From sequence record PV730300.1: 64,000 nt of DNA; one strand, given 5' to 3'. Source of the DNA: a phage. The translations under genes were made by a program, and so were the position numbers. Below the pieces are notes generated by a model. That model saw nothing but the letters and a program-made list of their open reading frames with translations. It was not told where the DNA came from and searched no databases. Below are positions 20,770-63,713 of the stretch, piece by piece. Position 1 is the first letter of the stretch. Each line of letters starts with the position of its first letter.

Positions 20770-21585
20770 TTATTTGTTTAAGTGGTCTTCGACCATTTTA
20801 ATGAAACCTTCATTGCTGAAGGCTGTTGCAGCTTTTTCTCGGTAAACAAAAACTCCACGATCTTCATAGAGAAGTGTTTCTTCGTAATTAACTCCAGGGT
20901 TAACTACAACCATTTTTGTACCCATACTAAGCGCAGGGAATAATTCCCAATTAAAATTGATAACTTGGTTTGAACATCCTACTACTACAACCAAATCTTG
21001 CATGGTCAAAGTATCGAACAAGTGAGCCATATCTGCATACAAAGGTGCAGCCTCACCAAAAAATACAACATTAGGCTTCACCCAGTTATAATCATCTATG
21101 TTTATACTATTGTAACCAATATCTACCAGTGTTTTGTAATCTCCAGGATGCATACGGTAAACTACTTCAGGGAGATATCCGTGCACGTGAATAACAGAAT
21201 CTCTGTCTACACCTGCTCGCTCTAGTAGATCATCAACGTTTGTTGTCAAGTTTACTATTTGGTTAGGATATTCCTTAAACCATTTTGCTATTTGAATATG
21301 TGCAGCATTAGGTTGTACATCTTTAAGTTCAACACGCCTTTTGTTATAAAATTCGTGTGTTTTGGCATACAAATCCATACCGTTCTCGTCTACACCACCG
21401 ACCACCGGAAGATCTGGAGATGTTCTAACACGATAACCTGCCTGGAAAGCTCCAATATCGCAGACCTCTTCTAAATCATATTCTTCCCATAAGGCACGAC
21501 CACTATCGGTGTCTGTTCGGAATGTTCTAATCCCACTATCTGCACTTAAACCTGCACCGCTTACAAAAATCACTCGTCTTGGCAT
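20770..21585 (-). CDS. Sir2-family (sirtuin-like, NAD-binding) protein lacking the zinc ribbon
   Basis: GAGLSADSGIRTFR, NVDDLLERAG, HVHG, VVVVGCS motifs; no CxxC pairs; RBS GAGGAGG. Confidence 0.7.
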   Translation of the reverse strand: MPRRVIFVSGAGLSADSGIRTFRTDTDSGRALWEEYDLEEVCDIGAFQAGYRVRTSPDLPVVGGVDENGMDLYAKTHEFYNKRRVELKDVQPNAAHIQIAKWFKEYPNQIVNLTTNVDDLLERAGVDRDSVIHVHGYLPEVVYRMHPGDYKTLVDIGYNSINIDDYNWVKPNVVFFGEAAPLYADMAHLFDTLTMQDLVVVVGCSNQVINFNWELFPALSMGTKMVVVNPGVNYEETLLYEDRGVFVYREKAATAFSNEGFIKMVEDHLNK

Positions 21586-22073
21586 TCTTCCTCCTCATAA
21601 TCATCATAATCTTCGTCATCCAAATCGTACACTTCATCTTGAGAATAACTCACTTCAAAGTAAATATCAAACTCCGCAAACAAACGTAGAATGTTGGACA
21701 TGCTATAATAAGTATCGTAGGCAGATTCAGCTTCATAGTAAACATAAAGCAAATGGTTAGCCTTATCATCTTCCAAATATTTCCCGTCTGCATACGCATA
21801 GTCTGCATATGCTTTACCTGCATCTTCCACAAGAGAACGATCAAGCAGAGTAGGAAACGGTTTCTCTTTTTCTTTTAGTTTGCTCACCAACCAGTGTGCA
21901 ATATCATGCCAATCTGCATCCTCTCCGCTGAAGCAGCTTGCAACTTCGCCAAACTTGGCATCTCCTAAGTCCCCGCTGATAGTGATCATGGTTGAACTAT
22001 TGTAACCACAAGTTTCGCAATTTGAACAACTGTTGTGCACATGAATTTCTACTTGAAACATATTTCCTCCCAT
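21570..22073 (-). CDS. hypothetical protein with N-terminal Cys cluster and polyacidic C-terminal tail
   Basis: ORF track; CSNCETCG; C-terminus DLDDEDYDDYEEEECQDE. Confidence 0.5.
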   Translation of the reverse strand: MGGNMFQVEIHVHNSCSNCETCGYNSSTMITISGDLGDAKFGEVASCFSGEDADWHDIAHWLVSKLKEKEKPFPTLLDRSLVEDAGKAYADYAYADGKYLEDDKANHLLYVYYEAESAYDTYYSMSNILRLFAEFDIYFEVSYSQDEVYDLDDEDYDDYEEEECQDE

Positions 22074-22119
22074 AAAAGAAAAGCCCCCTGAAACAGGAGG
22101 CTTTGTTCAGATGCTGGCA

Positions 22120-22773
22120 CTATACCAGACTTTGTAGGTATTTGTCAAGGGCTTCTTGATCTCCTTGACAAACATAGCAACGGAAGTCTTGAGCCGAAGG
22201 TTGTTTATTTTCATCCCAGTCCCAATAAACATTACCCTTATAACGTGAACCAGGAAACTCAAAAGAGGCTGTATGTGTAATGTATCCTGGGCCACCAGTG
22301 AAATCACAGAATGAGAATTGGGGGTATGCCGCCTTTACTGCCTCAATAAACCAAGCTTTACGATCTAAAGCTTCATTGATGCTATATGCATGTCTCTCCA
22401 TTTCTTCCCACGTTTTCCAGACACTTCTTTCATCAGGAGAAAAGACAAGCCATTCTGGAAGGTAGAGAGTGTCATAGTAATCATCATATTCGATCTCGGA
22501 GGCGCACGAAGCTGACTCCTCCAGTTTTGAGTAATCAAAAGCAGAATATACCCACCAACCATCTTCCAGTAAGGCTTTGACAGGGACGAAGCCTTTATCA
22601 GCATATTGATCGAATTGTTTGACACGGTGGCTTGTGCAGTCTTCAAACTCACATTCTAAACGATATGCACCTTTTCGACGAGCCTCAAGACCGTGTGTAC
22701 TGAAAATAACAACACTTCCTTCACCATCATTACGATCTACTTGATAAGCAACTACTGGTTTTGAATTTGACAT
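22120..22773 (-). CDS. hypothetical protein (217 aa)
   Basis: ORF track. Confidence 0.5.
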   Translation of the reverse strand: MSNSKPVVAYQVDRNDGEGSVVIFSTHGLEARRKGAYRLECEFEDCTSHRVKQFDQYADKGFVPVKALLEDGWWVYSAFDYSKLEESASCASEIEYDDYYDTLYLPEWLVFSPDERSVWKTWEEMERHAYSINEALDRKAWFIEAVKAAYPQFSFCDFTGGPGYITHTASFEFPGSRYKGNVYWDWDENKQPSAQDFRCYVCQGDQEALDKYLQSLV

Positions 22774-30801: not shown

Positions 30802-30846
30802 TATTAATCTCCTATGTTTAAGAAATGCCCCCGAAGGGGCAGTTTG

Positions 30847-31539
30847 TTAAATAGCGGTTCCTTCGAAATCCGCCACATTTACGAGATTAATATTTTCAGA
30901 TTTAGAAGTCAAGTTGTTTTCTGCAACAGATTTTTCTTCAGTATCCGCCTCGTTACCTGCCACGTTACGAGGTTCTTCTTCACCGTAGGGATTACCGAAT
31001 TTCAAAAGATTGATCAATTCTTCTTTGGAGAAGTTTTCTAAATCATCATCTGTTAATTCAATAATCTCGTCTTGTTCTTCAATAAATGTTTCACCACCAG
31101 AAAAAGCATCTCGCTTTTTAGCTACTTCCATAGCCTGTTCTGGTGTTGCTCCTGCATCAAGAGCAGCTAAAGCAAAATCTGACCCGCTTCCTACCGCATA
31201 ATATTCTTCATCAATCGGATATGCACGTGTTGGGTTGTTACCTTCATGCAGGAAAATACGTCCGTCTGGATGAACAACAAGTGCAATAAACTCTTCATCT
31301 TCTTTGTCTGGATCAGAGTGAATCATCAAACCAGGGACAGCATCACGTGCTGCTTCGCACTGTAGGTTTTGTTCAAACCATTGAAAGAAAGAAAGCACGG
31401 AGGTCAGACGACCAGCACCACCTACAAGGTAATCTCCAATTTTTCGGACCTTTTTGAAATTAATAGAATCTACACGTCCACCGAAAGTTACCTTACCGTC
31501 ACTCAAAATCTTATTTTTGGTTGCAATAATTGTCGTCAC
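30847..31539 (-). CDS. HslV-like Ntn-hydrolase peptidase with acidic C-terminal extension
   Basis: GTG start then TTIIA (Thr2 nucleophile position), KKVRK, GGAG, AVGSGSDFALAALDAG align to HslV; RBS GAGGAGG. Confidence 0.6.
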   Translation of the reverse strand: MTTIIATKNKILSDGKVTFGGRVDSINFKKVRKIGDYLVGGAGRLTSVLSFFQWFEQNLQCEAARDAVPGLMIHSDPDKEDEEFIALVVHPDGRIFLHEGNNPTRAYPIDEEYYAVGSGSDFALAALDAGATPEQAMEVAKKRDAFSGGETFIEEQDEIIELTDDDLENFSKEELINLLKFGNPYGEEEPRNVAGNEADTEEKSVAENNLTSKSENINLVNVADFEGTAI

Positions 31540-32042
31540 TATTCTTCCTCCTCTGTTAATGTTTTAAGAACCGCTTTCCCGCCATTCACATATTTGCAGA
31601 TGTATTCTATCGCACGTAGTGTCTCTTTGTCAACAAAAATTTGATCAGACGTTGCGAGCGGGTTATTAAGAAGATCACTGCAATCACGAACAAGCAGTGC
31701 TTTCTTATTAAACAAATTACTTAAGAACAGTAACTTCGCCTCTTCTTCTGTTATGTGCAGAAGGCTAGGATCGGAGCCAGCTATTCCTATTATACAATCA
31801 AACAAGCTTTCTTTACTATCAGAAAGTTCTTGAAAATGGTTTAAAAGCCAATCTTCTCCTAGACACCAACATTTAAACATTTCCAGTTTATCTCGGAGGG
31901 TCATATTCTCTAAAGTAAGAGCAATCTCTTTTTCAATATGGTTTACACAAATTTGACGAAATTCGTTAGGTTTTACGAGTCCCGTTTGATAGCACTCATC
32001 TATACCGCTTCTTCCGATAGCTATTGTTGCTACACCCATCAA
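31539..32042 (-). CDS. hypothetical protein (167 aa)
   Basis: ORF track. Confidence 0.45.
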   Translation of the reverse strand: MMGVATIAIGRSGIDECYQTGLVKPNEFRQICVNHIEKEIALTLENMTLRDKLEMFKCWCLGEDWLLNHFQELSDSKESLFDCIIGIAGSDPSLLHITEEEAKLLFLSNLFNKKALLVRDCSDLLNNPLATSDQIFVDKETLRAIEYICKYVNGGKAVLKTLTEEEE

Positions 32043-32074: not shown

Positions 32075-32833
32075 TTAAATAAACACTTCAGTAATCAGTT
32101 TAGACAAACGTCCACGTTTATTATCGTCCGTTGTCAGTTCAACGTATCCAATAAAATCTACAATTGGCTCACGAACACCTTCTTCATTTTCTGGATACAA
32201 AAGTTCCAAAATTTGATGCAGACCATTACTACGTTTTTTAATTGCATATGTCTGGCGAACATCGCCTAATACAATAACATGCGTATTAATACCTGCACGT
32301 TCAATAAGAAGTTTAAGTGTTTCTGTTGACATAAGTTGTGCTTCGTCAATAATGACGATTGTATTATCCAGGGTAGCCCCTAACAAATAGTTAGGAATAT
32401 TCAATTCGATCTTACCTGATCCAATATCGTTTTCCAATTTGTTGGCTGTCATGAATTGCTGGAAAATACGTTTTGTAGATTCATAGTGTGCTGCTAGTTT
32501 ATCTGTTTTATCCCCCGACAAGAAACCAATCTGATCATCTCCGACTTCAGTAGGGTTCTTGATAAAAAGTAGTTTACGGAAGTCTCCTGAGCGAAGCATC
32601 TGCAAAGCTTTCCATAAAGCAACAGAGGTTTTACCAGTCCCTGCCGGAGCATTTACAACAGTCAGATCATTCCAAATCATGCTTTGAACAATCTTATTTT
32701 GGTCCCCTTCAGGCATAAATTCATCTAAACGGTAATCGTCATTACCTACCGCTTTTGCTGCATAACGGCTTTCAATCTTTGCTGAATTAGCCAGTTTCTG
32801 CCGTTGTGTTTTAGCTGCGGTTTTATTTCCCAT
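32075..32833 (-). CDS. phoH: PhoH-like ATPase
   Basis: NAPAGTGKT Walker A, VIIDEAQ Walker B-like; ATG at 32833 after AAAGGAG (track start 32884 overlaps lysozyme). Confidence 0.75.
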   Translation of the reverse strand: MGNKTAAKTQRQKLANSAKIESRYAAKAVGNDDYRLDEFMPEGDQNKIVQSMIWNDLTVVNAPAGTGKTSVALWKALQMLRSGDFRKLLFIKNPTEVGDDQIGFLSGDKTDKLAAHYESTKRIFQQFMTANKLENDIGSGKIELNIPNYLLGATLDNTIVIIDEAQLMSTETLKLLIERAGINTHVIVLGDVRQTYAIKKRSNGLHQILELLYPENEEGVREPIVDFIGYVELTTDDNKRGRLSKLITEVFI

Positions 32834-32850
32834 AGTAGCACTCCTTTTAG

Positions 32851-32868
32851 AAGGGGCCGAAGCCCCTT
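32851..32868 (-). other. conserved intercistronic hairpin AAGGGGCCGAAGCCCCTT (copy 2 of 3)
   Basis: Between lysozyme stop and phoH RBS. Confidence 0.5.
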
Positions 32869-32870
32869 TA

Positions 32871-33371
32871 TTAGTTGTAAGCATCTAAAGTTCCAGAAGT
32901 CAGAACTTTAATTACTCGTTCAGCACGGTTTGGCGTCTGGCTATACCATCGGCTTTTACGCATGTTTTTACCTGCTTGAGTATAATATGCATTGCTGATT
33001 AAAGTCAAGCTATTTTGAAACCCTTCAGCACCTTTTAACCCCAACTGGAAAACCATGTTGATTATTCCCAATTTACGAGTATCACTAACCTTATCATAGA
33101 TTGGTGATAAGATAGTACTGTTTTTTATGTCTCTCTTCACTTTTGCAACATCGTCAGCAAAGATTTGACGGGCTTCTTTTTCTGTGATAACTCCATTAGT
33201 CTTACGACCAAGAAGATTATCTAAGATTTGAATAGCCTTTGCTTTATCTTTTATTTTAGTCAGAAGGTGTCCTATGCCGACTGTCCAATAACCAAGATGG
33301 TCTTGATAAACAGTAAGCTTCAGTCCTTCATCGACTCGTAGCATATCAAACTCATCTACTACTTTAGCCAT
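32871..33371 (-). CDS. T4-type lysozyme (endolysin, glycoside hydrolase family 24)
   Basis: DEGLKLTVYQDHLGYWTVGIGHLLTK and RWYSQTPNRAERVI align closely to T4 lysozyme. Confidence 0.85.
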   Translation of the reverse strand: MAKVVDEFDMLRVDEGLKLTVYQDHLGYWTVGIGHLLTKIKDKAKAIQILDNLLGRKTNGVITEKEARQIFADDVAKVKRDIKNSTILSPIYDKVSDTRKLGIINMVFQLGLKGAEGFQNSLTLISNAYYTQAGKNMRKSRWYSQTPNRAERVIKVLTSGTLDAYN

Positions 33372-63233: not shown

Positions 63234-63713
63234 ATGGAACTCAATAAAGATACACTGTGGGAACTCTTCAAAACCTTCGCTGGTTTTAAAGAGAATTCTG
63301 AATCCCAACAAGATTCTATACCATCTCAAAAACCTGAAACTTTAGTCAAACAAAATAAATTTGATGAAGAAAAGATGCAGGTTATTGAGGTCTTGTATTG
63401 TCCACCTGAAGAAGACGATCTCCACGGAGAGCGCATGTCTGATTTGGAAATCAGGAAGATGGTTGACAACTTCAATGAGAATATTACCAACATTAGCGGT
63501 AATCTTGGTCACATGAAGAACACCGATAAGTTTTCTCCAATTAAAGCTTGGGTAAATGAAGTCGATTGTTACATTGGTGACGAACTCGTTGTGGAAGGAA
63601 CTCCCCTCGTTAAAATCCAATTCAACGACCCTGAATTATATCAAGCTCGTAAAGACGGCGTTCTTAAAGGTTTGAGTATAGGCGCAATGGGCGTTAAAGT
63701 CAAGAAGGACTAA
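63234..63713 (+). CDS. XkdF-like prohead protease / scaffold-associated protein (putative)
   Basis: EDDLHGERMS ... GLSIGAMG pattern recalled from XkdF-like family; position after portal. Confidence 0.45.
   Translation: MELNKDTLWELFKTFAGFKENSESQQDSIPSQKPETLVKQNKFDEEKMQVIEVLYCPPEEDDLHGERMSDLEIRKMVDNFNENITNISGNLGHMKNTDKFSPIKAWVNEVDCYIGDELVVEGTPLVKIQFNDPELYQARKDGVLKGLSIGAMGVKVKKD

Follow-up and report, generated by a model that had tools for sequence, protein, structure and literature searches.

Sequence and structure-model analysis of a predicted PPH-type, proteasome-like peptidase with an acidic C-terminal extension in a Phapecoctavirus phage

The window analysed here, a stretch of 64,000 nucleotides (nt) from sequence record PV730300.1, belongs to the genus Phapecoctavirus (phAPEC8/ESCO5-like myoviruses of ~150 kb, Stephanstirmvirinae) and carries on its minus strand, at 30847..31539, a complete open reading frame (ORF) for a proteasome-like peptidase of 230 amino acids (aa), starting with GTG and ending with a TAA stop at 30847-30849. 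The protein belongs to the proteasome/HslV superfamily of N-terminal-nucleophile (Ntn) hydrolases and, judging from its conserved residues and predicted structure, is very probably an active peptidase that uses Thr1. The minus-strand sequence 5' of the GTG is GAGGAGGAAGAATAGTG, and a strong Shine-Dalgarno region, GAGGAGGA (GGAGG), is read directly 7 nt 5' of the start codon (31546..31553, minus strand). The N-terminus of the product is MTTIIATKNKILSDGK (MTTIIA), and the start codon is well supported, because 213 of the 233 family members retrieved begin with MTT. The codon of Thr2, at 31534..31536 (minus strand), specifies the predicted catalytic N-terminal nucleophile, which would become Thr1 after removal of the methionine.

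Regarding its family, the protein passes the gathering cut-off of the Pfam Proteasome model PF00227 (25.6 bits versus 22.4, E 1.1e-5) and matches PHROG 1040, 'peptidase HslV family', from end to end (E 1.6e-63). In a sequence search against solved structures an HslV chain, 1m4y, was found with an E value of 4.9e-9, and the family profile ranked HslV first in the PDB (4.8e-15), with the 20S beta5 subunit next. The AlphaFold2 model, built from a 50-sequence alignment, has a mean predicted local distance difference test (pLDDT) score of 84, with block means of 83-99 over residues 1-160, and shows an alpha-beta-beta-alpha Ntn fold for the catalytic core, residues 1-157 (31069..31539, minus strand). 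The best Foldseek matches of this model in the PDB are HslV (6kui, 1g3i, 1m4y), BPH (5ovs/5ovt) and archaeal and eukaryotic 20S beta subunits, at E values of about 1e-10 and a probability of 1.00.

Conservation was read from an alignment of 50 homologues reaching down to 26% identity, in which T2, T3, I4, D14, K30, G117-S118-G119, A123, G130, A136 and A140 are invariant and G41-A42-G43 is kept in at least 90% of the sequences. These residues are equivalent to those whose roles are listed by Fuchs et al. (PMC8665760), where T2 corresponds to Thr1, D14 to Asp17, K30 to Lys33, the GAG segment to the oxyanion loop of Gly47 and the GSG segment to the Ser129 loop. The original prediction, made from the letters of the window, had read the GTG start and the threonine at position 2, had aligned the protein to HslV through the GxAG and GSG regions and had proposed a phage-encoded Ntn peptidase; all of this agrees with the present results, to which the minus strand is added, and the fold whose absence it had named as a counter-sign is the one seen in the AlphaFold2 model and its Foldseek matches. 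Of the two kinds of profile that it proposed to search, the Proteasome model is matched above its cut-off and the HslV models are missed, as described below.

Residues 158-230 form an extension of about 73 residues behind the core, with 19 Asp/Glu versus 5 Lys/Arg, a net charge of -14 and an isoelectric point (pI) of ~4.05, compared to a calculated pI of 4.35 for the whole peptidase. The original prediction of about 80 extra acidic residues thus holds for the acidic character and is corrected in size and composition, as the extension has two parts: a helical motif of the first ~24 residues, which is conserved, and a disordered stretch of the last ~49. The two-helix motif covers residues 161-181 (ELTDDDLENFSKEELINLLKF; 30997..31059, minus strand), with AlphaFold2 helices at 164-169 and 172-181 and block-mean pLDDT scores of 85 (161-170) and 88 (171-180), falling to 67 for the block from 181. 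The acidic tail, residues 182-230 (30850..30996, minus strand), drops from that value to 40-53 and contains 11 Asp/Glu versus 3 Lys/Arg.

Directly after the core, an acidic stretch is found in the extended proteins together with a motif of the type LTxExLxxMSKEELLxLLF, and a loose pattern of this motif is found in 115 of the 136 family members of at least 180 aa versus only 1 of the 64 members shorter than 165 aa. The tail differs in sequence and length between relatives; the net charge of the region behind the core is negative in all extended homologues of one homologue set (-2 to -27) and in 50 of 59 extended representatives of 50% clusters. When 1.84 billion cluster representatives were searched with the profile, 11,284 matches to the superfamily were obtained, 65 of them at E <=1e-30, with extended proteins of 183-350 aa as the top scorers, followed by many MTT-starting proteins of 137-160 aa; the same fold occurs in 46 viral predicted structures. 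A C-terminal docking motif, either a mimic of the HslU tail or an ssrA-like tag, was considered and discarded, as the C-termini of the homologues share nothing.

Other modules are found at the ends of some relatives. Many distant extended ones (P0096-P0133, P0072-P0079) finish with L..LA..L.IKYAHNIG.EKL..RI, which resembles a helix-extension-helix (HeH, Rho_N/Ish1-like) module and is lacking in the window peptidase; its identity as HeH was not upheld, with sub-threshold Pfam matches only (E 0.009 for Ish1, 0.022 for Rho_N) and an empty profile search of the PDB. Three relatives of 324-379 aa (P0061, P0062, P0063) have an additional C-terminal CxH...KxKGxCxxCG pattern, which is zinc-ribbon-like, and a Trp-rich end (W[KR][LV]).

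Besides the similarities of the core, the model shows a structural difference from HslV. According to DSSP, the model has a single long helix, residues 45-67, between the strands 37-43 and 84-89, followed by a coil of 16 residues, so that the H1/H2 helix pair of HslV is not present and an acidic loop, residues 68-83 (DAVPGLMIHSDPDKEDEE; 31291..31338, minus strand), takes the place of helix H2. This loop has 6 Asp/Glu versus 1 Lys/Arg, its residue D81 is kept in at least 90% of the aligned homologues, and it occupies the position of the pore loop of HslV and BPH, where the pore loop comes after H1/H2. H2 is a part of the face on which HslU docks in HslV. The pocket for the HslU C-terminal tail in HslV is made of Phe54, Phe57, Ala79/Lys80 and Gln114 (PMC6429459), and both Ala79 and Lys80 are located on the helix that is absent from the phage protein. 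The NCBIfam equivalogs of HslV are also missed by a wide margin, with 31.4 bits versus 157.75 for TIGR03692 and 32.2 versus 137 for NF003964. Consequently, the peptidase is not HslV proper, and the term 'HslV-like' in the original prediction is not supported in its narrow sense.

As described by Fuchs et al. in 2021, PPH is a compact proteasome homologue of phages, with about 140 residues and without H2, found in Caudovirales and prophages, and is one of the group-I homologues radiating from BPH and HslV (PMC8665760). Helix H2 is absent from RPC as well as from PPH, and propeptides were found only in proteasome beta subunits and HslV, in no other group (PMC8665760). Based on these traits in the sequence and the model, the peptidase is probably of the PPH type, in a subclade with an added C-terminal extension. 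The Phapecoctavirus origin fits the occurrence of PPH in tailed phages and prophages of Proteobacteria. A PPH-like core without H2 followed by a C-terminal domain has been published only from Proteobacteria, not from phages; the architecture of the peptidase is compatible with it, but its clade is phage-borne.

The gene is already known, in the sense that it has been annotated and its family published. Its counterpart in RefSeq ESCO5 is gp077 (YP_009787068.1), labelled 'peptidase HslV family', and 99.6%-identical proteins occur in dozens of Phapecoctavirus records of RefSeq and GenBank, also under the labels 'HslV family peptidase', 'ATP-dependent protease subunit HslV' and 'putative proteasome component'. 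The 4 kb around the gene are at least 99% identical to 59 Phapecoctavirus phage records, and relatives of the peptidase were found in 234 phage records, including phages of Escherichia, Vibrio, Caulobacter, Aeromonas and Rhizobium. Five records titled 'Campylobacter phage' match the query region; the one listed, B15 (MG065650.1, host Campylobacter jejuni), is 99.3% identical to E. coli Phapecoctavirus and looks like a case of host mislabelling or contamination. Among 185,579 species genomes of bacteria there was a single match, the 425-bp contig JAPMLR010000072.1 of a Lysobacteraceae assembly, a 100% match to residues 68-208 of the peptidase that most likely stems from phage contamination of that assembly.

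In ESCO5, gp077 lies in a long leftward block with genes for Sir2, DprA, DNA methyltransferases, PhoH, lysozyme, glutaredoxin, dTDP-sugar enzymes and NrdAB. In the window, the peptidase is preceded by a gene of 166-167 aa, here called X (31539..32042, minus strand; PHROG 14834, function not assigned), and this one by a gene for a PhoH-like P-loop ATPase (32075..32833, minus strand), the first of the trio. The mechanical PhoH ORF, 32075-32884 (minus strand), is too long, as the Shine-Dalgarno site with the ATG at 32833, RefSeq and the homologue P0066 indicate a protein of 252 aa. The AlphaFold2 model of X is all-alpha with a pLDDT of 92, and fold and family searches gave no informative match. 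X keeps its position in more distant phages, where ORFs of 153 and 170 aa at the same place (L005, L006) are homologous to it (E 2e-21 and 4e-28). Because the TAG stop of X (31539-31541) and the GTG of the peptidase overlap by one base, sharing the G in TAGTG, the sequence indicates that both are translationally coupled.

The trio is flanked by two similar hairpins. A TTCG-tetraloop hairpin (TGCCCC-TTCG-GGGGCA; 30826..30841, minus strand), followed by TTTCTT and thus terminator-like, lies 6 nt 3' of the peptidase stop, and a near-identical GC hairpin with a TTCG tetraloop lies between the lysozyme and PhoH genes (32850-32869), followed by CTAAAAGGAG, the Shine-Dalgarno site of PhoH. From these hairpins on both flanks, PhoH, X and the peptidase may form one unit. 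A sigma-70-like site with 11 of 12 matches (TTGACA, an 18-nt spacer, TAGAAT; 31604-31633, minus strand) is located inside the 3' end of X, ~65 nt 5' of the peptidase start, and may represent an internal promoter, unless the match is due to chance.

Metagenomic phage contigs with peptidases of only 43-59% identity again show the gene order NrdA-NrdB-glutaredoxin-...-lysozyme-PhoH-X-peptidase, and PhoH is adjacent to or near the peptidase in a Vibrio and an Aeromonas phage (35-38% identity). As a functional partner PhoH was nevertheless set aside: it is near the peptidase in phages of Escherichia, Vibrio and Aeromonas, but in phiCbK no PhoH gene is found within 4 kb of the peptidase gene. Because the whole Nrd-Grx-lysozyme-PhoH block is syntenic, the linkage does not prove a functional coupling and may be inherited gene order. 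Prompted by a tandem pair in an Aeromonas phage, X was also considered as a degenerate second proteasome-like subunit and rejected, having no similarity to one, and a search with the family profile, covering all ORFs of the window and of the loci retrieved, found only one proteasome-like ORF in the window. Two such genes in tandem do occur in Aeromonas phage 2L372D, gp210 (L002:3432-3983), a divergent protein of 183 aa with an MTCII start, GCG replacing GSG and a Pfam Proteasome E value of 0.013, and gp211 (L002:4001-4885), an extended PPH of 294 aa; a viral proteasome-like particle with two kinds of subunit might result from the pair.

Regarding a possible ATP-dependent partner, the original prediction had noted that no HslU-like ATPase is adjacent; this is correct, and the ESCO5 annotation has none either over the ~139 kb inspected, all but the last ~10 kb of the record. 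Nor is any gene for a dedicated unfoldase adjacent or annotated in these regions. The only PF00004 AAA protein found in ESCO5 is gp153 (379 aa; L010:47399-48538), outside the window and beside an endonuclease gene. It was discarded as an unfoldase partner: its relatives are mostly found in Enterococcus, Bacillus, Staphylococcus and Lactococcus phages, where they are labelled clamp-loader-like, and the genera named for the peptidase matches do not include these. A PADLOC search for defence and anti-defence systems gave no match.

A natural variant bears on the need for the gene. In phage VEcB (NC_052663.1 / MT932211.1), a single ORF of 267 aa at 21498-22298 (P0066) joins residues 1-122 of PhoH to the peptidase from about residue 62, so that PhoH is without its C-terminal half, X is lost entirely and the peptidase has no catalytic Thr1. 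From its sequence this fusion looks like a natural deletion and, if the assembly is correct, PhoH, X and the peptidase are not needed for laboratory propagation, which suggests that the peptidase is an accessory gene, dispensable for plaque formation.

Among the other explanations for the peptidase, the first states that it replaces or joins the host HslV and docks on host HslU hexamers, redirecting ATP-dependent proteolysis to substrates chosen by the phage. HslV is its nearest solved relative by sequence and profile, and the phages carrying the family infect Proteobacteria (Escherichia, Vibrio, Aeromonas, Caulobacter, Rhizobium). Proteobacteria typically possess HslUV. In a hand alignment, the two residues of HslV at the H1 side of the HslU-tail pocket, Phe54 and Phe57, correspond to L49 and F52 of the peptidase, whereas S25, in a column that is not among the conserved ones, aligns with HslV Lys28, the salt-bridge partner of the HslU C-terminus. 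However, because the equivalog scores are low, H2 is missing together with the counterparts of residues 79 and 80 and no hslU-like gene is annotated in the ESCO5 regions inspected, the recruitment of host HslU raised by the original prediction is disfavoured by sequence and model, and this explanation appears rather improbable. In addition, neither the genomic context nor a co-occurring AAA+ protein hinted at a function for any of the new homologues of Fuchs et al. (PMC8665760). A role as prohead protease, in capsid maturation, can be regarded as extremely improbable: the peptidase is phage-encoded and the RefSeq annotation of ESCO5 names no 'prohead protease', but its gene lies in a DNA/nucleotide metabolism block on the strand opposite to the morphogenesis module, and the window has an S78 protease ORF of its own beside the portal and scaffold genes. 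This ORF of 159 aa, at 63234-63713 on the plus strand between both genes, matches Pfam Peptidase_S78_2, an XkdF-type serine protease family, with an E value of 1.4e-11; it is ESCO5 gp256, labelled 'DNA methyltransferase' in RefSeq, and from its sequence it is probably the prohead protease, the label then being wrong. Moreover, VEcB could be isolated and sequenced although its deletion takes Thr1.

It has also been considered that the protein acts as a sequence-specific processing enzyme or transpeptidase, in the form of a monomer or small oligomer like connectase, with the extension recognizing one target, possibly X, PhoH or a host defence protein. The superfamily does include connectase, a monomeric ligase (PMC8665760), rings may assemble less readily without H2, the orphan protein X is conserved alongside the peptidase, with a tight coupling of the two genes, and the modular variation at the C-terminus (acidic tail only, cysteine-containing domain or HeH-like module) is a pattern typical of targeting domains. 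On the other hand, the connectase signature, an insertion between S3 and S4 (PMC8665760), is absent and the model is a compact HslV-like core; sequence and profile place the peptidase with HslV, the ring proteases HslV and BPH are among its closest Foldseek structures, and no candidate substrate was found, X having no informative fold match. This explanation is thus held to be unlikely. An inactive pseudo-enzyme or scaffold that keeps only the fold, or a hydrolase of non-peptide amides like other Ntn hydrolases, is conceivable given the functional diversity of Ntn hydrolases, yet seems very unlikely, as Thr1, Asp, Lys and GSG are invariant, and GAG is kept in at least 90%, over more than 200 sequences down to 26% identity; because the full catalytic set is conserved, selection appears to act on proteasome-type peptide hydrolysis.

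The explanation that we prefer, and consider reasonably probable as a whole, is that of a competent Thr peptidase of the PPH type, an accessory protein working as an HslU-independent homo-oligomer whose acidic loop and tails shape the access of substrates. The gene is the last of the PhoH-X-peptidase unit in the leftward block of DNA/nucleotide metabolism, coupled to X as read from the sequence; the timing of its expression is inferred. The host methionine aminopeptidase would remove the methionine, by its known specificity and as for E. coli HslV, leaving the threonine as residue 1, and no propeptide would be needed, because Met removal alone exposes Thr1. Then Thr1, D14 and K30, with the GAG oxyanion loop and the GSG loop, would cleave peptide bonds, as expected from the residues and fold observed. 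The subunits probably form rings like those of HslV and BPH, with the acidic loop lining the pore and the acidic tails pointing outwards, and would require neither HslU nor a dedicated AAA+ unfoldase, in the manner of BPH. That manner is taken by analogy, because the loop replacing H2 is acidic and located at the position of the pore loop, and the pore loop of BPH, which acts without an unfoldase, is long and acidic (PMC8665760). Peptides, unfolded proteins or basic proteins would serve as substrates, with the helical motif and the acidic tail recruiting them. For the ring assembly and the ATPase-independent details we see about an even chance.

Several points weigh against this preferred explanation. 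What is said here on the activity, the oligomeric state and the pore geometry of the peptidase is inference. Without H2 the protein could fail to form rings at all, and an enzyme that forms none might instead process specific sequences. Fuchs et al. likewise warn that several of the homologues may have new quaternary structures (PMC8665760). The assignment to PPH (reference WP_042125023.1) rather than to RPC (reference WP_140207863) is based on described traits, and the literature found on any PPH consists of annotations and the 2021 survey, with no experimental or functional study. Lastly, an error of assembly could account for the deletion in VEcB.

Large phages commonly carry proteasome-like peptidases, none of which has been assigned a function. 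Should the enzyme prove active without an ATPase, it would illustrate how a virus can supply a bacterium with a compartmentalised protease of its own, and the variable C-terminal modules would then be a handle for finding targets. A bolder proposal, which we hold only as a tentative and quite unlikely one, makes the extended PPH clade a stand-alone viral mini-proteasome, in which the helical motif, polyanionic tails resembling DNA mimics and the acidic pore loop capture basic nucleic-acid-binding proteins of the host, so that nucleoid proteins or defence nucleases would be fed to the Thr1 sites without an ATPase, with X perhaps as adaptor or regulator. If true, such a degradation device, directed against the host or its defences, would have no described precedent in phages. 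New in the present analysis are only three points, namely the extension subclade as described here, the synteny of PhoH, X and the peptidase, and the deletion in VEcB.

Compared to known systems, the window peptidase is essentially the same protein as that covered by the 'peptidase HslV family' annotations of PHROG 1040 and the Stephanstirmvirinae, although those of PHROG 1040 and RefSeq rest on homology only and are silent on the C-terminal extension. With HslV (ClpQ, the peptidase of HslUV), its best sequence and profile match among solved structures, it shares the fold, the catalytic residues and an MTTI N-terminus exposed by Met removal; unlike HslV, to which its identity is only ~22-26%, it lacks H2 and hence part of the pocket for the HslU tail, has no hslU neighbour and carries an acidic C-terminal extension that is absent from HslV. 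BPH of Thiobacillus denitrificans (5ovs/5ovt) is likewise a group-I protein, structurally near HslV, and takes ranks 3-4 in the Foldseek list, being absent from the best 60 matches of the family-profile search against the PDB; unlike the phage peptidase, it keeps H2, forms heptameric double rings and is bacterial. The closest likeness in traits is to PPH, as both are genes of tailed phages with a compact group-I core, no propeptide, no H2, the residues Thr1, Asp17, Lys33 and Gly47 kept and no AAA+ partner. The difference lies in size, where the ~140 residues of PPH are exceeded by the 230 aa of the window peptidase, made of a core of 157 residues and an extension of 73.

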